Source: Candidatus Saccharimonadota bacterium
Lineage (GTDB): Bacteria; Patescibacteriota; Saccharimonadia; Saccharimonadales; SZUA-47
Length of the DNA stretch: 64,000 bases
Direction of reading: 5' to 3'
Assembly: GCA_016700315.1 (NCBI GenBank)
Contig: CP065013.1
Coordinates: 641,449-705,448 of the forward strand
The position numbers and the translations under genes were made by a program. Below the pieces are notes generated by a model, which ran no database searches, was not told the DNA's origin, and was given only the letters and a program-made list of their open reading frames with translations. Of the stretch, positions 39,408-64,000 are shown in pieces (the first letter of the stretch is position 1; each line of letters begins with the position of its first letter).

Positions 39408-40850
39408 ATGAAAAAAGCATACTACGTTACAACTTCTATACCATATGTGAATGGCGACCCTCACATTGGTTTTGGCATGGAGATTATCCAAGCTGATGTA
39501 CTGGCACGCTATGCCAGGCAGCAGGGTAATGAGGTGCTATTCTCCACCGGAACAGATGAACACGGCACAAAAGTAGCCGAAAAGGCGATCGAGGAAAACA
39601 AAGACGTTGTTGAATTTGTACAAGAAAAGTCTGACAGTTTTAGAGAGCTATGCAAAGCGCTGAACATCAGCAATGATCGCTTTATTCGTACCACTGACAA
39701 AGGTCATGAGCAGCGCTCGCAGATTATCTGGCAGAATCTAAAAAAAGGCGACATTTACAAAGGTAAGTACGTAGGTTGGTATGATGTTCGACAGGAGGAA
39801 TTTGTCACCGAGAGCCAGGCCGATCCAGAACGTATGAAGCCCGATCATCCTCAAGCCTACCGCAAACTCGAAGAAGAAAACTACTTCTTTAAGCTCAGTG
39901 CCTACACCGAAGAAGTTAAGCAAGCCATTAAAAGTGGTAAGTTTGAGATTATCCCTCAAAAACGCCGTAATGAGATTTTGGCAGTGCTAGAGAAAGGCTT
40001 AGAAGACATTAGTGTGTCTAGGCCAAAAGACAAGATAAGTTGGGGTGTGCCTGTGCCGGGTGATGACACCCAAGTAATGTACGTTTGGTTTGAGGCGCTG
40101 ATGAACTACATCACGGTACTTGGTTACCCGGAATTCGATGATTTTAAGAGGTTCTGGCCAGCCAACGTGCAAGTAATCGGCAAAGATATTATTCGTTTTC
40201 ATGCGGCGATTTGGCCTGCAATGCTACTGAGTCTTGGACTTAGTTTACCTAAAAAGCTTTATGTTCACGGATTCATAAATGTTGACGGCCAAAAAATGAG
40301 CAAAAGTATAGGCAATGTTATTGCACCAAAAGAGATCCTTGGTAAGTACGGCGTAGATACATACCGCTACTTTTTCCTACGCCACACTAGCAGTAGTGAC
40401 GACGGTGATTTTACATGGGACAAGTTGGCTAAGGCTTACAACGGCGAACTGGCTAACGAACTTGGGAATGCTGTTAGCCGTGTGGCAAGCATGATAACGC
40501 GTTACCAAGCAGGCGTGATAGGCGACGTGCCAGAAAGCAAGCACGATCGTCGTGAGTATGACGCAGCAATGGAAAAATGCCAATTCGACATTGCGCTCTC
40601 GGAGGTTTGGGAGCAAGTTCGGGGTCTAAATCAGTTTATCGACGAAACCAAGCCCTGGGTGATAGCAAAGGAGCAAGATCCGGAGCATCTACAAGATGTA
40701 CTGGCGCAGGCCGTCAGCGATCTGCTACAGGTAGCTGAGCTATTGGTACCGTTCATGCCAGACACAGCAAGCAAGATTGAGCATATTTTTGTTAAAGGCG
40801 TAGTGCGCATGCCGAAAGAGAATTTATTCCCAAGACTTGAAATCGGGTGA
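39408..40850 (+). CDS. metG: methionyl-tRNA synthetase (short form)
   Basis: PYVNGDPHIGF (HIGH), QKMSKSIGN (KMSKS), 480 aa. Confidence 0.9.
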   Translation: MKKAYYVTTSIPYVNGDPHIGFGMEIIQADVLARYARQQGNEVLFSTGTDEHGTKVAEKAIEENKDVVEFVQEKSDSFRELCKALNISNDRFIRTTDKGHEQRSQIIWQNLKKGDIYKGKYVGWYDVRQEEFVTESQADPERMKPDHPQAYRKLEEENYFFKLSAYTEEVKQAIKSGKFEIIPQKRRNEILAVLEKGLEDISVSRPKDKISWGVPVPGDDTQVMYVWFEALMNYITVLGYPEFDDFKRFWPANVQVIGKDIIRFHAAIWPAMLLSLGLSLPKKLYVHGFINVDGQKMSKSIGNVIAPKEILGKYGVDTYRYFFLRHTSSSDDGDFTWDKLAKAYNGELANELGNAVSRVASMITRYQAGVIGDVPESKHDRREYDAAMEKCQFDIALSEVWEQVRGLNQFIDETKPWVIAKEQDPEHLQDVLAQAVSDLLQVAELLVPFMPDTASKIEHIFVKGVVRMPKENLFPRLEIG

Positions 40851-41147
40851 GTTGATAGTTGATAGAAGAGACAAGAAGCAAGAGACAAGAGATAAGACGC
40901 AAGAGTCATGAGCCAAGAGCCAAGAGCCAAGAGCCAAGAGCTAGGGACTAGGGTCTAGGGTCTAGGGTCTAGCAGGTATTACCCCGTACCCTGTACTGCG
41001 TACCCCGTACCTCCTAGGGACTAGGGTCCAGGGTCTAGGGACCAGTTTATAGTTTATAGTTAATACTTGATACTATCTTTGTTTAGAATTTAGTGCTTAG
41101 GATTTAGAATTTATGCTAACTACTTGCTACTTTCTACTAACTACTTT
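40851..41147. repeat. heptamer-mosaic element A (abutting runs of 7-nt tandem repeats)
   Basis: Runs: GTTGATA x2; AGAGACA-like x7; GCCAAGA x4; CTAGGGT/CTAGGGA x5; CCGTACC-like x5; TAGGGNC x4; TTTATAG x2; TTAGAAT-like x4; CTACT-type x4. Starts 1 nt after the metG stop. Confidence 0.9.
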
Positions 41148-41170
41148 TAAATGTCAGGAGGGCGCTATAG

Positions 41171-41944
41171 ATGGAATTATTTGATACGCATTGCCATGTT
41201 CATTTTGCGGATTATAAAATTGACGTCCAGCAGGTCAGTAAAAACTCGCTGGCCGCAGGCGTAAAATATCAGATGCTAGTGGGCTGTACCTTAGAGGACA
41301 GTATCGCAGCCTTTGATTATGCCAAAAAAACAGGCGATCTAAAAAGCTATATCAGTATTGGACTGCATCCACACGAAGGTTCAGTATATGCTGGCGATGA
41401 GCTGGCGTTGGCTGAATTTAGCGAGCTTGCTACGCGTCCCGAGGTGGTTGCAATTGGCGAAACGGGTTTAGATTATTACTATAACCACTCTGATCGAATA
41501 ACTCAGGAGAAACTTTTTCGTTTTCAGCTTGATCTGGCCGCAAAGCATGATTTGCCGCTTATTTTTCATGTACGCAGCGCTTTTACTGAATTTTTTGAGA
41601 TACTTGATACTTACCAAAATATCCGAGGCGTGGTACACTGTTTTAGCTCAGGTGAGGCAGAGCTTCACGAAATTCTTAAACGGGGTCTGTATGTTGGGCT
41701 AAATGGCATTATGACATTTACGCACGACCAGGGGCAGCTCGCAGCGGCCAAAAAAGTACCACTGGATCGGTTACTTCTTGAAACTGATTCGCCATACTTG
41801 ACTCCTAAGCCCTTTCGTGGTACAATCTGTGAGCCCAAGCATGTGGCAGTAACGGCCGAGTTTTTAGCTTCATTAAGAGGAGAAAAACTCGAAGATTTAG
41901 TAGCTACTACCACGGCAAATGCAATAAAATTATTCAAACTATGA
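41171..41944 (+). CDS. tatD: TatD-family metal-dependent hydrolase
   Basis: DTHCHV, GETGLDYYY, HCFSSG, ETDSPYLTP. Confidence 0.85.
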   Translation: MELFDTHCHVHFADYKIDVQQVSKNSLAAGVKYQMLVGCTLEDSIAAFDYAKKTGDLKSYISIGLHPHEGSVYAGDELALAEFSELATRPEVVAIGETGLDYYYNHSDRITQEKLFRFQLDLAAKHDLPLIFHVRSAFTEFFEILDTYQNIRGVVHCFSSGEAELHEILKRGLYVGLNGIMTFTHDQGQLAAAKKVPLDRLLLETDSPYLTPKPFRGTICEPKHVAVTAEFLASLRGEKLEDLVATTTANAIKLFKL

Positions 41945-43965: not shown

Positions 43966-44814
43966 ATGAAATTTCTCAAAATGTCACACTTGATAACACG
44001 GAGGCGTATTAGTGCTTTGTTTGGTCTTTTTGCTCTGATTATTATTTCGTTAAGCCACCCTTTAAGCGCTCAATCTGTAACTCAAGGTTATACTTTTGAT
44101 GGTGTAGCGCAGCGTGGGATGGTTGTATCTTTGAAACAAGACGACGCTAGTAAGATCGAGCTTTCTACCCTAGACAATGCTACGCAGGCACACGGAGTGA
44201 TTGTTGATCCGAATGATTCGCCGGTGACTATCAGTAGCGAGAATCAAAAAGTCTTTGTTGCTACAGTCGGCCGTTACGATGTTTTAGTTAGCGACCAGAA
44301 CGGACCGATTGCACCAGGTGATTACTTAACGCTTTCAGCAGTCGAAGGTATCGCAATGAAAGCCGACGAAAATCAATATGTAAGTGTCGGCAAAGCGCTG
44401 ACGGCGTTTGATGGCAAAACTACGGTTGTAAGCACAGTAGATCTCAAGGATTCTTCTGGAGGCGTCCAAAAAGTTAGCATTGGGCGTGTTCAGTTAGACA
44501 TTGGCATCGGCTCAAATCCGCTGGCCCGTCCCAAGCAATCCAATTTGCCTGAATATCTGCAAAAAATGGCCGATGGCATCGCCGACAAGCCAGTCAATTC
44601 AATCCGTATTTATCTGGGTCTTATATTGTTGGCTGTGTCAGGGACTATCGCTGGCAGCCTAATCTACGGCGGTGTTAGAAGTAGTTTAATTTCAATTGGT
44701 CGCAATCCTTTAAGCAAAAAATCCATCATTCGCGGCTTGATACAGGTTATCATTACTAGCATTATGATTTTGGTTGTGGGCATTTTTGGGGTATATTTAT
44801 TAATAAAGCTTTAG
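43966..44814 (+). CDS. hypothetical secreted-domain protein with a C-terminal two-TM hairpin resembling ATP synthase subunit c
   Basis: Signal/TM, a beta-rich domain of about 190 aa, then SGTIAGSLIYGGVRSSLISIGRNPLSKKSIIRGLIQVIITSIMILVVGIFGVYLLI. Compare the subunit c loop I(A/G)RQPE....IRG. There is no acidic residue in helix 2. Confidence 0.45.
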   Translation: MKFLKMSHLITRRRISALFGLFALIIISLSHPLSAQSVTQGYTFDGVAQRGMVVSLKQDDASKIELSTLDNATQAHGVIVDPNDSPVTISSENQKVFVATVGRYDVLVSDQNGPIAPGDYLTLSAVEGIAMKADENQYVSVGKALTAFDGKTTVVSTVDLKDSSGGVQKVSIGRVQLDIGIGSNPLARPKQSNLPEYLQKMADGIADKPVNSIRIYLGLILLAVSGTIAGSLIYGGVRSSLISIGRNPLSKKSIIRGLIQVIITSIMILVVGIFGVYLLIKL

Positions 44815-44850
44815 CTATATTTTTAAATTTTTGGTGGGAGTAAAAAAAGT

Positions 44851-45468
44851 ATGAGTCTCGGTGTTTTGGTGGGAGCACTTATGGCAATAGCGGCTGCCGT
44901 TGGCGGCTTTGTTTGGTACTATCTAAAAAATGACGACGTAAAGGCCGGGAGTACTGTTAAAGATGACTATGCATCACTAGCCCAAAAAGATGTAGAACAT
45001 ATCTTTAATGATCAGTTTCGTGAAGAGTTAAGAAATCGAGGACGCTTGCACTTTGAAAAGATAATTGGTGAAAACGCCATGTTCTTACAGCAAGATCTAC
45101 GGCTTACAACCTCTCAGCTTAATGAATTTATGAAAACTGAGATTACGCGTACTCTCAAAGAAGAGTTTGCGCGCTATGAGGAGTCAATTAATGATGCGAA
45201 ACAATTGGCAATCGACTCTATCCAAAAGACTCAAAAGACAATCGAAGAACAGCGTGAGGCATTAACTAAACAGATTGAAGTACAGTTGTCAGCCGAAAAA
45301 AGCCGACAACTGGCAAGATTCGAAAAACACATGGCCGATATCGTCAATCATTACGTCTTGCAGGCTATTGGCGATCAAATTGACCTAAACGACCAGCTTG
45401 ACTTTATTCTCGGAAACCTCGAGGAAAACAAGCAAGCTCTAATTCAGGATATTACCGAGGGGGCGTAA
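44851..45468 (+). CDS. F-type ATPase subunit b-like (one TM plus a long coiled coil)
   Basis: N-terminal TM followed by a charged helix of about 170 aa. Position upstream of delta/alpha. Confidence 0.55.
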   Translation: MSLGVLVGALMAIAAAVGGFVWYYLKNDDVKAGSTVKDDYASLAQKDVEHIFNDQFREELRNRGRLHFEKIIGENAMFLQQDLRLTTSQLNEFMKTEITRTLKEEFARYEESINDAKQLAIDSIQKTQKTIEEQREALTKQIEVQLSAEKSRQLARFEKHMADIVNHYVLQAIGDQIDLNDQLDFILGNLEENKQALIQDITEGA

Positions 45469-45474
45469 GAGGCA

Positions 45475-46143
45475 GTGGAAAAAGTCGATTTCATACTACC
45501 CTTAAGCGTAGCGACACCAACTGATTTGGGACGGTTGTTACGTGAGGCTGAGTCTCTACACGATTTTCTAGAGCAAGCTGCAATCCGTAAGACAGGCGAA
45601 CCGATGAAGATGCCTAAGACTAGCCGAATGCTAGACGAACTAATGCAGACCAACAAAATGAACGGATTACAAAGTACAGAACGCCAAAAACTGATTAAAT
45701 GGCTAACCGCAATTAAGAAAAAAGCCCCAGTTGTACATATTAGTTTTGGCGCTGACCCTAGCCCAGTATTTCTACAAAAACTAGTAGCTTGGTTCCGCCA
45801 AAATATTCATCAATTCTTGATGATTCGGGTCGGTTTGCAGCCAAACATAGGTGCAGGTTGTATGATCAGGACCAACAATAAGGTTTTTGATATGAGCCTG
45901 AGGCAATATTTCAAGAAGCACTATCAGTACTTCGTCGATCATCTGCACGCTGTTATGGAAGATCCCAAGTCGAGCCAAGAGTCACCAGCCACCAGCCAAC
46001 AGCTAACAGCCGACGGCCAACGGCCACCAGCCGACGGCCAACAGCCACCGGCCAGCAGTCACCTGCCAACAGCCGACGGCCAACAGCAACCGGTCGATAG
46101 TCAGCAGTCGTCGGTAAACAGTAAACAAGGTACTAAAAAGTGA
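45475..46143 (+). CDS. F-type ATPase subunit delta (OSCP)-like with a heptamer-repeat-encoded C-terminal tail
   Basis: [22 protein letters not shown]...[31 protein letters not shown] fits the delta C-terminal domain pattern (..vDpsliGG..i..g....D.S....L). The last ~55 aa are 7-aa periodic. Confidence 0.55.
45968..46135 (+). repeat. in-frame heptamer array (~23 units, CCAACAG/CCGACGG type) inside the delta-like gene
   Basis: CCAAGAG TCACCAG CCACCAG CCAACAG CTAACAG CCGACGG CCAACGG CCACCAG CCGACGG CCAACAG ... TAAACAG TAAACAA. Confidence 0.9.
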
Positions 46144-47567
46144 GCGCTGGCCAACACTTTGACAAACTAGTAGCAGCCGGCAATCCGGTTGGTGAAGTTG
46201 TTGCAGTCGATAAGTTCTTGGTGCGGATTCATGGCCTGCAGCCGTGCCAGATTCACGCTCTCGTATTATTTGATGATGGCAGCAAGGGCTTTGTTCATCA
46301 GGTGCTAAAAGACGAGGTAATCGTGCTGCATCTTGGCGATCACAACCTAACAGTCGGGATGATCGCAGTAATCCAGCATCAAGAACTTGTCAGTAAAGTC
46401 GGCAAAGATTTTATCGGCAGAGTCATATCGGTCCAAGGCGAGCCATTAGATGGAAAAGGTCCGATTGCAGCTGATAGCGTTTGGCCTGTGTTCCGTACTG
46501 CGCCGCCATTGTACGCCAGGAAGCTGTTAGACACACAGCTAGAAAGCGGAGTGATTGCGATTGACTCATTGTTCCCGATTGTCCGTGGACAGCGTATGGC
46601 ACTACTGGGTGACAGTAAGTCTGGCAAAAGTACTCTCGTAACTCAACTTACTATAAACCAACAAAACACTGATCAAGTGGTTGTGTTTGTGTTAATTGCC
46701 AAGAGACGTACCGATGTTGATACGCTATTGAGTCGCCTCAATGACAGCAAAGGCCTGGACAAGGCAGTGGTTATAGTCTCGACAATGTTTGAGAGTTTGA
46801 TAGCCAGCTATATCGCTCCTTACGTAGGTGTGGCGATGGCCGAGTACCTTTGGCAGGAGCTGGGCCAGGATACGATCATTATTTATGACGATCTTACTAG
46901 TCATGCCCACGCATACCGAGAGGTGGCTCTCATGAGTGGCGTTAGCCCAGGTCGAGATAGCTATCCTGGAGACATGTTCTACGCCCATTCTAGCCTTTTG
47001 GAGCGCGCCGGGCGCCTTGACAGCAACGCTGCTCATCTAACTAGTATCCCGCTAGTCAACGCCGCAGGAGGCGACATTACAGCCTACCTGCCAACAAACA
47101 TCATGTCTATTACTGATGGACAGTGGATTTTGGACATGGATATTTTCCGAAACGGGATTAGGCCGGCCCTAAACATTGGTCTGTCGGTGACTCGTGTTGG
47201 TGGAGTCGGTCATAATAAACGCCAAAAAGGTTTGGCTGCGCAAACGCTAAAGATACTAGCAGATTATCGTCAAGCCGAAGAGTTTTCTCACTTCGGAAGC
47301 GAACTTGCACTTGAGGCAAAGCATGCGCTTGAAGTTGGCAAAAATCTCTTTTCGGTAATGACACAGAGCCCGACAGATACCTATTCTTTTGTGGCGCAGG
47401 AACTGATGCTTGATATTGTGCTTAATCTAAAAACAGAGGAAAAACTCGATGTCTCGCAGCTAAAACTCAATGTGAAAGAATTCGCCGCCAAAATTACCAA
47501 AGACGAGGAATTTGAGAAAGTGCGCGATGAGCTGAAGGCTAAATGCATAGTGGAGCTAAAGAAATAA
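46140..47567 (+). CDS. atpA: F-type ATPase subunit alpha (divergent)
   Basis: [16 protein letters not shown] (P-loop position), [61 protein letters not shown]. Confidence 0.85.
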
Positions 47568-47570
47568 TAT

Positions 47571-47693
47571 GAGAATAAAGAGTATTGAGTATAGAGACAG
47601 CAAGAAGGTTGAATTTTCAATTTTCAATTCTCAATTCTCAATTTTCAACAACTTACGTCTATCTACCATCTACCATCTACCATCTGCTACTTT
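47571..47693. repeat. heptamer-mosaic element B between atpA and atpG
   Basis: TTTTCAA/TTCTCAA x5, CTACCAT x3 and related 7-mers fill the 144-nt intergenic gap. Confidence 0.85.
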
Positions 47694-52126: not shown

Positions 52127-52912
52127 ATGCGAACAATAAAAAGTTTTTGGCCAAAAAAATCAGCTATGCTCGTTGCCGTGCTCCTTATGGCTAGTTTTTC
52201 TAATGCTTACGCCCAGTATTCATCTGGTAGTTATAAGGTTGAAGAGGCCACCTTTGGAACAGGAGGTGAGTTAGATACCAGCTCGGCTAGTTACCGAGCG
52301 CAGGGTGCTGCAGGAGTTTTGGGGGTAGGCGATGCCTCTAGCGCAAGCTACGACGCCACAGCCGGGCTAATAACCCCCAACCAAGAGTACTTAGAGTTAA
52401 ATGTCGAAAATGTGACGATTAATCTGGGCGAACTTGACCCTACAACCACTAAGTTTGGGGCGGCTCAAGGAGGGGTGTGTAACTGCTCATTTTTTGTAAG
52501 AACCTATCTGTCAGATCAATATGTAGTAACAACTATGAGCGAGCCGCCAACTAGCGAAGCTGGGGTAATCCTGGCCGCCAAAACAACGCTCGGTATCCCT
52601 AGTTCAAGCGATGCAGTCGAGGAGTTCGGTATCAATCTCGTTGCCAATACAAGCCCTGGTTCGATGGGGGCAAACCCGGTTAACGTTCCTGACGGAACTT
52701 TTGCCGATGGGAAGGCAGAAACTGGCTACGATACGGTCAATCAATACAAGTACAACAAGGGCGACATTATCGCGCGTAGCGCTGCTACCTCAAGCAATCA
52801 AGCTACCGGCCAGACCAATTACACCATAAGCTACATTGTTAAAAGTAAAACTACCACTCCTGCTGGGCTTTACTCTATGTCACATGATATTGTGGCGACC
52901 GCACTTTATTAG
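52127..52912 (+). CDS. secreted beta-rich surface protein P1 (single conserved C-domain; WxL/fimbrial-like pattern)
   Basis: Signal peptide ...SNAYA/Q. Motifs LELNVENVTINLGELDP, EEFGINLVAN and C-terminal PAGLYSMSHDIVATALY parallel the C-terminal halves of P2-P4. Confidence 0.6.
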   Translation: MRTIKSFWPKKSAMLVAVLLMASFSNAYAQYSSGSYKVEEATFGTGGELDTSSASYRAQGAAGVLGVGDASSASYDATAGLITPNQEYLELNVENVTINLGELDPTTTKFGAAQGGVCNCSFFVRTYLSDQYVVTTMSEPPTSEAGVILAAKTTLGIPSSSDAVEEFGINLVANTSPGSMGANPVNVPDGTFADGKAETGYDTVNQYKYNKGDIIARSAATSSNQATGQTNYTISYIVKSKTTTPAGLYSMSHDIVATALY

Positions 52913-53288
52913 GGACGAGTTTATTTAAGAGCCAAGATTAGGTTTGAGGTTATAGGTTAGAGGTTATAGTGATTAGAGCTACGGACTAGTAGTTAGTAGT
53001 TGGTAGTTAGTAGTTGGTAGTTAGTAGTTAGTAGTTAGCAAATATTACCCCGTACCCTGTACTGCGTACCCCGTACCTCCTAGGGCCTAGGGACGAGTTT
53101 ATAGTTTATAGTTGATGGTTTATGGAAGAGCCGTGAGGCAAGAGACAAGACGCAAGAGTCATGAGCCAAGAGCTAGGGACTAGGAGCTAGGGTCTAGCGA
53201 ATACTACCCCGTACCCCGTACTGCGTACCGTCTAGGGACTAGGGTCTAGTTTCGAATTTCGTCCTCACTCCTCACGACTCACTACAAT
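52913..53288. repeat. heptamer-mosaic element C (~54 heptads)
   Basis: Runs of NNAGGTT x4; TAGTAGT/TGGTAGT x7; CCGTACC-like x4; CCTAGG x2; TTATAGT x3; AGAGNCA x6; GGGACTA-like x4; GTACCCC x3; CTAGGGN x2; ACTCCTC-like x3. Shares 43 identical nt with element A. Confidence 0.9.
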
Positions 53289-53300
53289 CCTGTGGATAAG

Positions 53301-54749: not shown

Positions 54750-55098
54750 GCTAATAGGGGTATAGGACGAGTTTATAGTTTATAGTTGATAGTTGATAGA
54801 AGAGCCAAGATTAGGTTAGAGGTTATAGGAAGAGCCAAGATTAGGTTAGAGGTTTATGGAAGAGACAAGATTAGGTTAGAGGTTAGAGGTTATAGTGATT
54901 AGTAGGACTACGGACTAGTAGTTAGTAGGTAGTAGTTAGTAGGTAGCAAGTATTACGCCGTACCGCGTACCTCGTACCACGTACCGACTAGGGACTAAAG
55001 TCTAGGGAACAGGGTCTATTTTAGAATTTAGTGCTTTGGATTTAGGATTTTATACTTCATGCTTGCTACCAACTACCATCTACCAACTTACCTCATTA
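54750..55098. repeat. heptamer-mosaic element D (contains a 3 x 30-nt higher-order repeat at 54801-54890)
   Basis: GTTTATA x2; GTTGATA x2; AGAGCCAAGATTAGGTTAGAGGTT(A)TAGGA x3; GTAGTTA/GTAGGTA x4; GTACCNC x5; CTAGGGA-like x4; GGATTT-type; CTACCA x3. Confidence 0.9.
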
Positions 55099-55132
55099 CT
55101 GTGGATAAAGGGTTGCGCTTAAGCTTAAAACT

Positions 55133-56580: not shown

Positions 56581-57636
56581 ATGAGACATAGGTCTAGTAA
56601 TGCGGTTGTGGTATTTGGGCGGGCAGGAATCTGTTTCCTGCTCGCTCTTTTAATTGTCAATTTTGGCCCGCGCGCCGACGCTGCTGATTTTCAGAACAGG
56701 TCGATAAGGTTGTCTTCGCCATCTGCGGGAGAGGCTTCTAATCACACCTTTAGCTTTACGAACCCGACCGTTTCGGTAGTTGGATCAATCGTATTACAAT
56801 ATTGCGCCAATAGTCCGCTTTTTATTGATCCTTGCGCCGCGCCAGCAGGGCTTGATGCGACAGCAGCTAGTTTGGCCAGCCAAACCGGCAATGTCGGATT
56901 CGTAAAGGACGCCTCGAGTACAGCCAGTCGTATCGTACTTTCCAGAGCGCCGGCCGGCAGCCTGAGCATCAATAGCAGCTATACCTTAAATAATGTGATC
57001 AACCCAACCCTTGCCGACCAAACATTCTTCGGACGCATAAGCATGCACGCAAGTAGTGACGGCAGCGGGCCAGCAATCGATCAAGGTGCGGTAGCATTTT
57101 CGACCAGTGGGTCGTTTAATATAGGCGCCTACGTCCCGCCTTTTCTGATCTTTTGTGTAGGTGTTACTGTGGCACCTGATTGTTCGTCTACCACAGGTAA
57201 TTTAATAGATTTTGGCGTACTGGCACCTACTATAACGGCTTTGGCAACTACGCAGTTTGCTGGAGCAACAAACGATTTTACAGGCTACCAAGTTTTTGTA
57301 AACGGCCAAACTATGACATCAGGTAACAATGCTATTCCAGAGCTGACTATTCCAGGATCAAGCAGCCAGGGCGTTAGTCAGTTTGGGCTAAATCTGCGCT
57401 TAAACAACGCGCCAGTAGTTGGCAATAACCCATCCGGAAGCGGCACAGCAGTGGTTGATCCTAAATATAACACTTCTAATCTTTTTGCTTTTGGCGATGG
57501 CGATAAGGTCGTTAGTTCGCCCATCACAACTGATTTCAATGTCTTCACCCAAAGCTATTTAGTTAACGTCTCAGCCTTACAAAAGCCAGGCGTTTATGCG
57601 ACAACTCTTTTATATACAGCTGTTGCTAGTTTTTGA
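56581..57636 (+). CDS. secreted surface protein P4 (distant paralog of P2/P3)
   Basis: Signal peptide ...PRADA/A. RSIRLSSPSAGEASNHTFSF, YCANSPLFIDPCAAPAGL, LIFCVGVTVAPDCSSTTGNLIDFGVL, C-terminal PGVYATTLLYTAVASF. Confidence 0.7.
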   Translation: MRHRSSNAVVVFGRAGICFLLALLIVNFGPRADAADFQNRSIRLSSPSAGEASNHTFSFTNPTVSVVGSIVLQYCANSPLFIDPCAAPAGLDATAASLASQTGNVGFVKDASSTASRIVLSRAPAGSLSINSSYTLNNVINPTLADQTFFGRISMHASSDGSGPAIDQGAVAFSTSGSFNIGAYVPPFLIFCVGVTVAPDCSSTTGNLIDFGVLAPTITALATTQFAGATNDFTGYQVFVNGQTMTSGNNAIPELTIPGSSSQGVSQFGLNLRLNNAPVVGNNPSGSGTAVVDPKYNTSNLFAFGDGDKVVSSPITTDFNVFTQSYLVNVSALQKPGVYATTLLYTAVASF

Positions 57637-57660
57637 GTAGTAAGTCCGCCTAAGTCGGAC

Positions 57661-57922
57661 TAGGAACGAGGGGGGAGTTAGCGGTTAGTAGCAAGTAGTT
57701 AGTAGTAAGTAGCAAGCGTTAAATTCTAAATTCTAAAATAGACCCTGGACCCTGGACCCTAGTCCCTGGTCCCTAGCTCTTGGCTCTACTTGAACAGTAC
57801 GCAGTAAGAGGTACGCGGTACGGGGTAATATTTGCTAACTACCAACTACCAACTACCAACTACCAACTACTAACTACTGGTCCATTGCCCTAATCACTCT
57901 AACCTATAACCTCTAACCTAAT
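57661..57922. repeat. heptamer-mosaic element E (reverse-complement orientation relative to A, C and D)
   Basis: Contains GGTACGGGGTAATATTTGCTAACTACC, the reverse complement of the GGTAGTTAGCAAATATTACCCCGTACC module in C, plus GACCCTG/GTCCCTA, AACTACC x5 and TAACCT runs. Confidence 0.9.
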
Positions 57923-58017
57923 AGCAAGAAACAGTTGTGAATTTTATAATGCTGCTTGCGCTTTTTCTAACTCTCTATTATGCTAGTGGTAAGTATCATT
58001 TTAAAGTGAGGGAAAGA

Positions 58018-61345: not shown

Positions 61346-62389
61346 ATGAAAAAGGTGTTCGTAGGGCTATCTGGTGGTGTTGATAGTTCCGTTGCGGCTT
61401 TGCTTTTAAAAGAGCAGGGCTACGACGTGGTCGGCGCGCATATGAAAAACTGGACTAAAAGTTTGCCGGGTTTTGCTTGTCCTTGGCGGGAGGATTATCA
61501 GGACGCCAAAAGAGTCGCCGTGCAGTTAGGTATACCATTTGAGTTATTTGATTTTGAGCAGCAGTACTTCGACAAGGTTGTGCAGTATATGCTCGATGAG
61601 TTTAAGCGAGGTGTTACACCAAACCCTGATGTCATGTGTAATCAAGAAATTAAGTTTAAGCTGTTTTTAGACATGGCGCTTGACCGTGACGCAGATTTTA
61701 TAGCTACAGGACACTACGCAGCCATCAGCCATCAGCCTTCGGCCGTCAGTTTAAGTATGGCTAAGGACGCGAACAAAGATCAAACCTACTTTCTGTACCG
61801 CGTAACGGAAAAGGCGCTCAAAAAGACTCTTTTTCCGCTGGGAGATCTAACTAAGAAAGAGGTGCGAGGAATTGCCAAAAAGGCCGGGCTAGTTACGGCC
61901 GACAAAAAAGAATCTATGGGCATTTGTTTTGTCGGTAAAGTTGGCATCAAGGAGTTTTTGAGCCAATACATCGAAACTAAACCCGGTAAGATAAAAGACC
62001 AGAACGGTGTGGTTCTTGGTGAGCATGACGGCGCAATTTTTTACACAATTGGGCAACGTAACGGGCTCGGTGTTGGCGGCGGTTTGCCGTATTACGTTAC
62101 GGGTAAGAATATGACTAAAAACGAAGTATACGTAACTAGCCAACTTGATGACCCTAAACTGTGGCTTAGTAAAGTTCGTCTAAATAGTATTCATCTCATC
62201 AACCATAAACTACCAACTATCAACCATAAACCCTTGCTCGTTCGGACACGCCATCGCGGCCCCCTTGTGCCTGCCAAGCTAGAAGGCAATAAGCTTATTT
62301 TCGATGAGCCGCAAAGAGCACTTACTCCAGGCCAATCTGCAGTTTTTTACAACGGTCAAATCTGCCTCGGCGGCGGAATAATTACTTAG
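61346..62389 (+). CDS. mnmA: tRNA 2-thiouridine(34) synthase
   Basis: VGLSGGVDSSVAA (PP-loop), NPDVMCNQEIKF, ATGHYA, KDQTYFLY, MGICFVG. Confidence 0.9.
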   Translation: MKKVFVGLSGGVDSSVAALLLKEQGYDVVGAHMKNWTKSLPGFACPWREDYQDAKRVAVQLGIPFELFDFEQQYFDKVVQYMLDEFKRGVTPNPDVMCNQEIKFKLFLDMALDRDADFIATGHYAAISHQPSAVSLSMAKDANKDQTYFLYRVTEKALKKTLFPLGDLTKKEVRGIAKKAGLVTADKKESMGICFVGKVGIKEFLSQYIETKPGKIKDQNGVVLGEHDGAIFYTIGQRNGLGVGGGLPYYVTGKNMTKNEVYVTSQLDDPKLWLSKVRLNSIHLINHKLPTINHKPLLVRTRHRGPLVPAKLEGNKLIFDEPQRALTPGQSAVFYNGQICLGGGIIT

Positions 62390-62416: not shown

Positions 62417-64000
62417 ATGACAGCGCAGGAAATTAGAAACAAGTATTTAGATTTTTTTTCTAAACGTGGACATGCCCAAATTCCGCGTGCTTTGTTGGTA
62501 CCATATAACGACCCAACTACTCTTTTTACTGGCTCCGGCATGCAGCCGCTAATTCAGTATTTGCTAGGCGAGCCTCATCCAGAAGGCACCAAATTAGTCG
62601 ATAGCCAGACTTGTCTTAGGGCTCAGGACATAGATGAGGTTGGTGACAACCGCCACACAACTTTCTTTGAAATGCTTGGTAATTGGAGTTTGGGCGACTA
62701 TTTTAAGGCCGAGCAGTTGCCTTGGTTTTTTGAATTTTTGACAGATGTGGTTGGCTTGGATCCGAACAAACTCTATGTCACGACTTTTATTGGTGATAAG
62801 GATAACGGGATCCCACGAGACACAGAAAGTGCTGAACTTTGGGCTGGATTGTTCAAGCAAAAAGGTATCGAGGCTAAAGCCGTCGAAATAGGCTCTGAAG
62901 CAGATGGCTACGCCAAAGGTATGCAAGGTGGCCGTATTTTTTATTATGACGCTAGCAAAAACTGGTGGTGCAGAGCTGGCAAAATTGGCGATATGCCGGC
63001 AGGTGAGCCCGGGGGGCCAGACAGCGAAGTTTTCTACGAATTTGACTTTGTAGAACATGATCCAAAATGGGGCCAAAACTGTCACCCAAACTGTGACTGT
63101 GGTCGCTACATGGAAATTGGTAACAGTGTTTTCATGGAGTATTTACGCACAGAGAAAGGCTTTGAAAAGCTACCGAAGCAAAATGTTGACTTCGGTGCTG
63201 GCCTGGAGCGTATCGCCGCTGCTGCGATAAACAGTCCAGACATGTTCAAGATCAGCGTCATCTGGCCAATAGTCGAGAAACTCGAAGCTATCAGCGGTGT
63301 GAAATATGATTTTACTCCCGGTGATTTGGGATACGAGAAGATGCCGGATTGCTGGCTAGATACTATGAAGTCGATGCGTGTGATCGCTGATCATTTGCGG
63401 GCAGCAACTTTCTTGGCTGTCGATGGAGTAAGCCCGAGCAACAAAGAGCAGGGTTATGTGATGCGCCGACTCTTGCGCCGTGCTATTCGCTTTGCATTTG
63501 ATCTGGGTATTGAACAGAACTTCTTAGAACAGATCGTGCCAGTTATTGCCGATATTTACCATGCAGATTTCCCGGAAGTTGCCGCCAATCGCCAGCAAGT
63601 TATCGAAACGCTAGTCAAGGAAGAAAAAGTCTTCCGCCAGACTCTAAGAAAAGGCCTGAAAGAGTTTGAGAAAATATTCCAATCGAGTCAAGAGTCAGGA
63701 GTCATGAGTCAAGGAGAAGCTCTGTTTAGGCTTTATGACACCTATGGTTTTCCTATTGAATTAAGCGTTGAGGAAGCTTCTAAACGAGGCATTGAATTAG
63801 AATCAGATTGGCGTGAGCAATTTGACGGCAAAATGGCTGAGCAAAAAGCGCGTAGTCAGACAGCGAGCAAGGGAGTGTTCAAAGGTGGGCTTGGTGGCCA
63901 AACCATGCAGCACAAGAAATACCACACGGCAACTCATCTAATGTATCAAGCGCTGCGCGATGTGCTTGGCGACCATGTTATTCAGCGCGGCAGTAACATT
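62417..64000 (+). CDS. alaS: alanyl-tRNA synthetase, 3' end outside window
   Basis: Hand-translated: MTAQEIRNKYLDFFSKRGHAQIPRALLVPYNDPTTLFTGSGMQ..., FEMLGNWSLGDYFK, GGPDSEVFYEF, GNSVFMEY. The frame is open to nt 64000 and is absent from the track because no stop lies in the window. Confidence 0.9.
   Translation, partial: MTAQEIRNKYLDFFSKRGHAQIPRALLVPYNDPTTLFTGSGMQPLIQYLLGEPHPEGTKLVDSQTCLRAQDIDEVGDNRHTTFFEMLGNWSLGDYFKAEQLPWFFEFLTDVVGLDPNKLYVTTFIGDKDNGIPRDTESAELWAGLFKQKGIEAKAVEIGSEADGYAKGMQGGRIFYYDASKNWWCRAGKIGDMPAGEPGGPDSEVFYEFDFVEHDPKWGQNCHPNCDCGRYMEIGNSVFMEYLRTEKGFEKLPKQNVDFGAGLERIAAAAINSPDMFKISVIWPIVEKLEAISGVKYDFTPGDLGYEKMPDCWLDTMKSMRVIADHLRAATFLAVDGVSPSNKEQGYVMRRLLRRAIRFAFDLGIEQNFLEQIVPVIADIYHADFPEVAANRQQVIETLVKEEKVFRQTLRKGLKEFEKIFQSSQESGVMSQGEALFRLYDTYGFPIELSVEEASKRGIELESDWREQFDGKMAEQKARSQTASKGVFKGGLGGQTMQHKKYHTATHLMYQALRDVLGDHVIQRGSNI

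Follow-up and report, generated by a model that had tools for sequence, protein, structure and literature searches.

Heptanucleotide repeats are the most abundant class of long simple sequence repeats (SSRs) in many prokaryotes and have been ascribed to polymerase slippage; within genes, units divisible by three predominate (Mrazek, Guo and Shah 2007, as summarized in PMC4679880 and PMC4692102). Among positions in a protein, the termini are the most tolerant of SSR insertions and deletions, including those that shift the reading frame (Lin and Kussell 2012, PMC3315296). Here we describe a 7-nucleotide (nt) tandem array within the 3' end of a gene for a delta/OSCP-like subunit of the ATP synthase stator in a Candidatus Saccharimonadota bacterium (GenBank assembly GCA_016700315.1, contig CP065013.1). 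The window that we analysed is a 64,000-nt stretch of this contig (positions 641,449 to 705,448 of the forward strand), and coordinates below are window positions. Like other prokaryotic long SSRs the array is a head-to-tail 7-nt repeat that lies at a protein terminus and is a hotspot of indels between strains; unlike most intragenic SSRs of prokaryotes, it has a non-triplet unit that persists in frame over 21 copies.

The TAACTGA direct repeats of marine Beggiatoaceae and cyanobacteria are mostly intergenic and lie near start codons (MacGregor 2015, PMC4679880). When they fall inside open reading frames (ORFs), in the stop-free orientation, they are translated to the 7-residue repeat LSVISYQ at the very start or end of proteins, beyond the conserved domains; MurG and a glycosyl hydrolase, for example, carry it at their C-terminal ends (PMC4679880). 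These translated termini of Beggiatoaceae proteins are the closest precedent for the present array, which is likewise a tandem 7-nt unit translated as a 7-residue repeat at the periphery of a protein. The two differ in unit sequence and phylum and in copy number (sets of 2-6 copies for TAACTGA versus about 21 here), and no allele series within a population was reported for TAACTGA, whereas the gene described here occurs in forms of 208, 215 and 222 amino acids (aa). Moreover, the orientation is not forced here, CCAACAG being open in all six frames, and the host gene encodes an ATP synthase stator subunit and has a stop codon that overlaps the start of the next gene.

The cyanobacterial STRR heptamers (Calothrix, Nostoc) and the GGGAATC/GGGGAYT repeats of Xanthomonas and Nostoc consist of many short, differing heptamer blocks strung together between genes (PMC4692102). 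This arrangement resembles composite elements found elsewhere in the window rather than the tail array, which is C/A-rich on the sense strand, coding, and from an unrelated phylum. The tail unit CCAACAG matches neither TAACTGA nor the STRR units CCCCAGT, TTGGTCA and CAACAGT. The rotation CAACAGC is identical to the last of these (STRR3) at 6 of 7 positions, which we take to be a coincidence. Tandem repeats in the ORFs of Borg elements create disordered, rapidly evolving low-complexity segments, always by perfect copies of units that are multiples of three (Schoelmerich et al. 2023, PMC9879509). Here too a DNA tandem repeat in an ORF yields a segment predicted to be disordered, and intergenic repeats occur in the same genome, but the unit is 7 nt long, its copies are imperfect (71-75% matches) and the frame is kept only in three-unit steps.

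Phase-variable contingency loci with SSRs in their coding sequences, such as CAAT in lic1 and CTCTT in opa, carry perfect repeats near the 5' end that switch the protein off. The present array shares with them a non-triplet repeat in coding sequence that varies in length, presumably by slippage, but it is imperfect and sits at the 3' end, the protein core cannot be removed by it, and the common alleles are in frame. The literature searched contained no paper on heptanucleotide or heptameric repeats in Saccharibacteria or Patescibacteria.

The array has a DNA period of 7

We consider it probable that a heptanucleotide microsatellite has grown by slippage in the dispensable 3' tail-coding part of the delta gene of one Saccharibacteria species and is translated as a disordered tail. 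The features on which this explanation bears are as follows.

45475-45960, + strand: core of the delta/OSCP-like stator subunit, residues 1-162 (assigned from operon place, PDB profile matches, an AlphaFold2 (AF2) model and Foldseek)
45961-46143, + strand: tail-coding region, residues 163-222 and the TGA stop; Q/S/P/D/A-rich, predicted disordered
45975-46121, + strand: heptanucleotide array of about 21 units, consensus CCAACAG (variants CCGACGG, CCACCAG, TCACCAG), delimited by Tandem Repeats Finder (TRF), register and autocorrelation
45995-46036, + strand: length-polymorphic segment, its exact boundaries ambiguous within the repeat
46122-46139, + strand: non-repeat last codons of the delta gene, with AAGG at 46127-46130, the presumed atpA ribosome-binding site
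46140-46143, + strand: GTGA, shared by the GTG start of atpA and the TGA stop of delta (homologous ATGA in the sister species L002)
46140-47567, + strand: atpA, the F1 alpha subunit (Pfam ATP-synt_ab, E=8.8e-66)

Regularity is highest at 45989-46086, and the array degenerates towards either edge. TRF reported a period of 7 with 16.4 copies at 45973-46087, plus secondary periods of 28 and 42. When read in register from 45975, 21 consecutive units through 46121 fit YCRNCRG/CCAACAG; position 7 is G in 21 of the 21 units, position 5 is C in 19 and position 2 is C in 18. The array of the original prediction is therefore real, with about 21 units rather than the roughly 23 claimed. Base matching was 0.65-0.70 at lags 7, 14, 21, 28, 35 and 42 (0.66, 0.70 and 0.68 at the first three) and 0.10-0.42 at every other lag, and lag-7 matching in 5000 mononucleotide shuffles was 0.30 +/- 0.04 with a maximum of 0.44. 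Tandem head-to-tail repetition of a 7-nt unit far beyond chance is thus confirmed.

Alternatively, the tail could be a heptad-repeat domain at the protein level that arose through 21-nt duplications and is kept by selection for a specific function in the stator. The clear 7-residue periodicity of the tail, the alleles that differ by whole 7-residue units and the presence of some low-complexity tail in most orthologues are all in keeping with such a domain. We re-encoded the 47 residues of the array with the codon usage of this genome, and these synonymous versions gave lag-7 matching of 0.39 +/- 0.04 (maximum 0.54, n=2000) versus the observed 0.66, and lag-21 matching of 0.50 versus 0.68. Because lag 21 is no stronger than lag 7 (or lag 14), the periodicity belongs to the DNA, with a unit of 7 nt, rather than to a protein repeat of 21 nt, and because the recoded peptide reaches only 0.39 at lag 7, the 7-nt period exceeds what the peptide requires. 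Against the domain also stand tail substitutions that are all nonsynonymous between strains, predicted disorder of the tail and the lack of a homologous repeat in any orthologue. The DNA periodicity largely refutes a selected heptad domain, which we regard as very unlikely.

As 7 and 3 are coprime, every three units of the array read as seven codons, which gives the 7-residue periodic, Q/P/S/A/D-rich C-terminal tail that is predicted to be disordered. That a 7-nt repeat is translated in frame to give a tail of 7-residue period had been proposed originally and was borne out by the autocorrelation, the translation and the recoding control. Perfect CCAACAG repeats contain no stop in any of the six frames, and the three sense frames all encode the same cyclic peptide. 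In the window the delta ORF has no in-frame stop before 46141 and the other two forward frames each meet one or two stops across the array. One of these, the TAA of a CTAACAG unit, is found in this strain only and is absent from all other alleles. The statement that the array is stop-free only in this frame is thus literally true of this strain, but it is a weak distinction.

Periodicity ends at 46121, 19 nt short of the atpA GTG, and not exactly at the overlap as had been claimed; it is the ORF that ends in GTGA. The Shine-Dalgarno-like AAGG lies 9 nt before the GTG and presumably serves as the atpA ribosome-binding site, and the overlap suggests that atpA is translationally coupled to the delta gene.

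Length alleles differ in steps of three units

The delta protein belongs to a 90%-identity protein cluster of 27 members, and allele lengths were taken from the 15 of these that were listed. The full-length forms among them were 222, 215 and 208 aa, and entries of 166 and 159 aa are the 222- and 215-aa forms called from an internal Met. The 215-aa form is the commonest (its variants occur in 26, 6, 5, 2 and 2 contigs) and has one 7-residue unit fewer than the 222-aa form, whereas the 208-aa form (10 contigs) has two fewer. At the DNA level the 215-aa allele (L091-L094) lacks 21 nt, or 3 units, placed at 46002-46022, and the 208-aa allele (L087-L089) lacks 42 nt, or 6 units. Both gaps stand in heptamer register and retain the reading frame and the GTGA overlap, as foreseen by the original prediction that only changes of three heptamers would do so. 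These gaps are the only indels in 5-9 kb of sequence that is 99.2-99.5% identical to the window, apart from a 3-nt gap at 47621 in an intergenic array (in L087) and the indels of contig L090. Copy number is thus polymorphic in unit register between close strains (3 and 6 units), the 34-nt deletion of L090 excepted.

L090 (JGI 3300045389), a contig from the same species, carries this 34-nt deletion at the 3' edge of the array, which shifts the frame to give a 217-aa delta protein that reads 22 nt into atpA. A 64-nt insertion also interrupts its b-like gene, and the indels of L090 are equivalent to window positions 45209 and 46082. We treat L090 as a defective or degenerate copy, or as a misassembly.

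If the array were a phase-variable contingency locus, non-triplet slips would switch delta or atpA expression on and off. The tract does vary in length, the frameshifted L090 allele passes the atpA start, and out-of-frame slips would break the stop/start overlap. However, simulated slips of +/-1 or +/-2 units gave products of 203-218 aa with a similar tail and with core residues 1-162 intact, ending at stops at 46100 or 46117, 23-40 nt upstream of the atpA start. As the tract lies at the 3' end and every simulated slip spares the 162-aa core, the slips would not turn the delta subunit on or off. The out-of-frame lengths (203, 210, 211 and 218 aa) were not found among the listed cluster members, of which all 14 other than L090 are in frame. 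Moreover, the repeats are imperfect, the gene is a housekeeping gene, and the L090 deletion is no multiple of the heptamer and occurs in a contig in which the b-like gene is also disrupted. A phase-variable switch is hardly credible at this locus.

Short-read assemblers can collapse repeats, and the 166- and 159-aa cluster members are merely N-terminally shortened gene calls, both of which would fit an array that was an artefact of assembly or gene calling. Within the 222-aa alleles no exact repeat is longer than 18-19 nt, which is too short for k-mer collapse; collapse at k=31 is therefore unlikely, and we rejected it as the source of the shorter alleles. These alleles are present in assemblies from different pipelines, and the array itself is found in NCBI, JGI, ENA and Logan assemblies of many runs, in an ORF that runs without an in-frame stop to 46141. 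The chance that the array is an artefact is negligible. When we scanned metagenome contigs with an exact pattern of the invariant 5' edge of the array there were 0 matches, and a protein-based scan of the same contigs gave only two distant relatives (38-40% identity) and no further alleles or intermediates.

The array is confined to one species-level lineage

Tails were extracted from 80 GTDB Saccharimonadia loci and from close contigs. At the 80 further loci the tails are 0-186 aa long, P/A/Q/E/T-rich and mutually unrelated in sequence. None shows 7-nt periodicity: lag-7 matching was 0.15-0.34 at the 80 loci versus 0.61-0.63 for the window and its close relative L001. Tails are thus unconserved, and the comparison gave no sign of an ancient, conserved low-complexity domain, the finding that the original prediction had named as its refutation. 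In the sister species (L002-L006) the core is 84% identical in amino acid sequence and the operon about 76% identical in nucleotides, and the tail is 33 aa long with a lag-7 matching of 0.27. Blastn failed to align the sister-species tail with the window, and the alignment breaks exactly between 45955 and 46138. Residual periodicity was not found in the tails of L002 or of L007 and L008, relatives at 61-64% (lag-7 matching of 0.23-0.28). As the array is lacking in the sister species and at the 80 other loci, it is specific to one species-level lineage.

Sister species L002 has a 4-nt stop/start overlap (ATGA) and a GAGGTGA Shine-Dalgarno motif where the window has AAGG, and the delta-atpA junction is -4 or -1 in most of the 80 Saccharimonadia loci. 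Since the 4-nt overlap and the position of the ribosome-binding site are common to the window and L002, the array would have expanded in an existing tail-coding region. The most likely origin is expansion inside an already variable tail-coding region with retention of the terminal codons, ribosome-binding site and overlap, whereas read-through into an intergenic array or spacer seems less likely. Hence, of the idea that an intergenic element was absorbed into, or extended, the coding region, the lineage-specific extension is supported and the absorption is not.

The tail shows little or no purifying selection on its sequence. L001 is 99.18% identical to the window, ungapped over 8977 nt, with four substitutions in the array. 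Between the two, the tail has 0 synonymous and 3 nonsynonymous changes, and the 282-aa ORF, the b-like gene, the delta core, atpA and atpG together have 21 synonymous and 0 nonsynonymous changes (the exact probability of such a split is about 1/2024 by our own arithmetic). Hence, the amino acid sequence of the tail appears to be purified little or not at all, whereas the other compared genes of the operon are strongly purified, and the tail sequence may well be nearly neutral.

Probable slippage within a tail that tolerates it

Given these results, we return to a microsatellite grown by slippage in the tail-coding region. Replication slippage would expand the CCAACAG array to its present 21 or so units inside the dispensable 3' part of the delta/OSCP-like gene, a mechanism suggested by the register in which the indels fall and by the literature. 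The array would be tolerated because its unit is stop-free in any frame and the core domain lies upstream. Its length still changes, and the naturally common alleles differ by multiples of three units (21 nt); only steps of this size leave the terminal codons, the ribosome-binding site of atpA and the GTGA overlap in place. If the tail acts at all, it most likely does so as a flexible extension without specificity, comparable to the low-complexity tails, unrelated in sequence, that other Saccharimonadia delta subunits carry.

Several observations weigh against this explanation. L001 has diverged by 0.8% without a change in array length, and the 34-nt deletion in L090 is out of heptamer register. 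We saw just two length changes that keep the frame, and the probability that both would do so without selection is about 0.11; selection on frame and overlap is thus suggestive, coming from two independent events among the listed cluster members. With 71-75% matches by TRF the array is imperfect, and hence no young tract of high mutability. We read the tail as a putative translated segment from the sequence, and some tail is kept in most orthologues, which hints at a function that is independent of sequence.

This is ordinary microsatellite biology in an unusual place and no new mechanism: about 21 copies of a 7-nt unit lie in the gene of an essential stator subunit, where an overlap acts as a frame filter. 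It would provide a clean natural case in which a non-triplet microsatellite adds a disordered segment to an essential and otherwise strongly conserved protein, the surviving alleles being limited to three-unit steps by the reading frame and the stop/start overlap. The 208/215/222-aa series could be used as a strain marker for this Saccharibacteria population and as a small test case for the tolerance of tails on the ATP synthase stator. The locus also draws attention to the abundant heptamer arrays of some Saccharimonadia genomes.

The host gene encodes a delta/OSCP-like stator subunit

The 222-aa ORF at 45475-46143 (+ strand) is identical to NCBI QQS64629.1 (locus tag IPO96_03590, Candidatus Saccharibacteria bacterium), which is encoded on a contig of 988 kb, and its homologues are nearly all from metagenome-assembled genomes of Saccharimonadia. 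The window has a G+C content of 45%. The gene order is b-like (205 aa), delta-like, alpha, gamma and beta, with an epsilon gene following in L001 and L002, and hence the delta-like gene sits between the b-like gene and atpA, the place of a delta/OSCP gene. The protein did not reach the cutoff of the Pfam OSCP family (PF00213; E=0.011, 16.3 bits versus 22.3), the sub-threshold match spanning residues 49-146 and profile positions 69-165. A PDB profile search with 32 homologues in the profile gave 12 matches, all of them OSCP/delta chains (E 0.04-0.7).

In the AF2 model the predicted local distance difference test score (pLDDT) of core residues 1-162 is mostly >90, and the top matches of a Foldseek search against PDB (about 38) were all OSCP/delta chains, with probabilities of up to 1.00 and E values from 1.2e-3. 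The TM-scores of these matches were low (0.2-0.3), probably owing to domain orientation and the tail. On the strength of the modelled fold, which is that of OSCP/delta, and of the operon position we accept the ORF as a delta/OSCP-like stator subunit. Tail residues 163-222 have pLDDT values of 53-63 and no secondary structure in the same model, and the 60-residue segment (12 Q, 10 S, 8 P, 5 D and 5 A) is predicted to be disordered and flexible.

The two ORFs directly 5' of the delta-like gene (282 and 205 aa; 43966-45468) gave no significant Pfam match, and the 205-aa ORF occupies the position of subunit b. None of the tested ORFs beside the operon was an ATP-synt_A or ATP-synt_C gene; subunits a and c were not sought in the remainder of the window.

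Heptamer arrays elsewhere in the window and in relatives

A lag-7 scan of the whole window found periodic stretches that cover 222 window positions, versus 0.1 expected. All 14 periodic regions lie between 40.9 and 63.7 kb, that is in the last 23 kb of the window, and the first 40 kb have none despite many spacers of 150-700 nt. The arrays that bear on the tail are as follows.

47604-47692, + strand: intergenic heptamer arrays AATTTTC x5.3 and ATCTACC x3.6 in the 144-nt atpA-atpG spacer (TRF, lag-7 scan)
40845-41175, 52910-53295, 54755-55105 and 57635-57940 (reverse orientation): four intergenic composite heptamer elements, made of successive blocks
L007 9422-9513; L026 5853-5990; L053 9595-9689 and 10559-10700; L017 5984-6133: heptamer arrays at ATP operon junctions of relatives

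The atpA-atpG spacer seems to show the same 7-nt process at the next junction of the operon, a junction that is a -4 overlap in most relatives. Across the 80 Saccharimonadia loci ATP operon junctions are mostly overlaps of -4 or -1, and those that have opened to about 100-200 nt often hold heptamer arrays with unrelated units. In L017 the delta-atpA spacer of about 160 nt has two inverted arrays (AAATCAC... and GTGATTT...), which could form a long hairpin. Heptamer arrays at opened junctions imply that a tendency to form 7-nt repeats is widespread in the class and acts at gene junctions, and the tail array would be another product of this tendency and not a copy of a dispersed element.

The composite elements are of a different kind. 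Their blocks have units such as AGTTGAT, AAGAGCC, CTAGGGT, TACCCCG, AGTTTAT, TAGTAGT and AGGTTAG, and in blastn-short comparisons the four share stretches of 50-85 nt at 89-98% identity among themselves. The sister species has no counterpart of the element at 40845-41175, its orthologous junction having a spacer of 40 nt. The four resemble a family that spread recently to dispersed sites, and we found none like them described for Saccharibacteria in the literature searched. In a blastn-short search the tail matched neither any of the four elements nor the atpA-atpG spacer (E<=1e-3). The tail array has a single unit family, CCAACAG and its one- or two-base variants, whereas each composite element has several different blocks. 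Only the first two tail units (GAGCCAAGAGTCA, 45972-45984) match AAGAGCC/AAGAGTC blocks, with 0-2 mismatches. CCAACAG is also one base from CCAAGAG, possibly by chance, given an estimated 15 or so units, 7 rotations and 2 strands. We rejected the tail as a copy of a dispersed composite element, there being no blastn-short match. The tail's supposed membership in the intergenic heptamer-element class is not supported, as the stretches that the four elements have in common are not shared with the tail.

The intergenic arrays raise the question of whether the tail array is primarily a cis-acting nucleic acid element for atpA, either a platform for an RNA- or single-stranded-DNA-binding protein that reads heptamers or a determinant of atpA translation or mRNA processing, the peptide being a by-product imposed on the delta gene, since delta and atpA overlap and leave no room for a spacer. 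Heptamer arrays of the window end about 10-25 nt before start codons (array end/start 41146/41171, 47685/47712, 57920/57937 and, in coding sequence, 46121/46140), although any array that fills a spacer will end near the next start and the pattern is thus uninformative. Several Saccharimonadia operon junctions carry heptamer arrays, the inverted arrays of L017 among them, but most Saccharimonadia have no array at the delta-atpA junction. The units also differ wholly between junctions and species (at atpA-atpG, ATTAACT plus a 21-mer in L002 versus AATTTTC and ATCTACC in the window), so that there is no common recognition sequence. The unconstrained amino acid sequence of the tail and, by analogy, the TAACTGA repeats just upstream of Beggiatoaceae start codons (PMC4679880) are compatible with a cis-acting role, whereas the variation of copy number between strains is not what it would lead one to expect.

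The RNA of 45960-46160 folds better than its shuffles (-59.8 kcal/mol versus -45.7 +/- 4.0; z = -3.5), a value that we set aside as a sign of a structured element because CCGACGG units and GGCC junctions are self-complementary and trivially beat shuffles. A scan of the whole window at Rfam gathering thresholds found only tmRNA and tRNAs, none of them in the operon, and a scan for promoter and terminator consensus sequences found no motif within the array. A cis-acting element for atpA is in our judgement unlikely.

We entertain with similar reserve a broader proposal, that the heptamer arrays of this Saccharibacteria lineage are more than passive microsatellites and stem from a process or element, particular to the lineage, by which arrays are seeded at gene junctions. 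It would open spacers in an ATP synthase operon that ancestrally overlapped and, where none can open, build new coding sequence, the arrays perhaps being read by a heptamer-binding factor that tunes the downstream gene. If such a seeding process were real, the delta tail would be a protein segment caught being born from a regulatory repeat.

Short heptamer runs also occur within other genes of the window. An MnmA-like ORF (61346-62389) has runs at 61717-61749 and 62197-62232, and an AlaRS-like ORF that runs off the end of the window has one at 63685-63713, both genes being otherwise conserved. These runs have 4-5 copies of the units CAGCCAT, CATCAAC and GAGTCAA. The AlaRS-like run encodes SSQESGVMSQ, and the delta tail likewise begins with SSQES, the DNA strings being near-identical.

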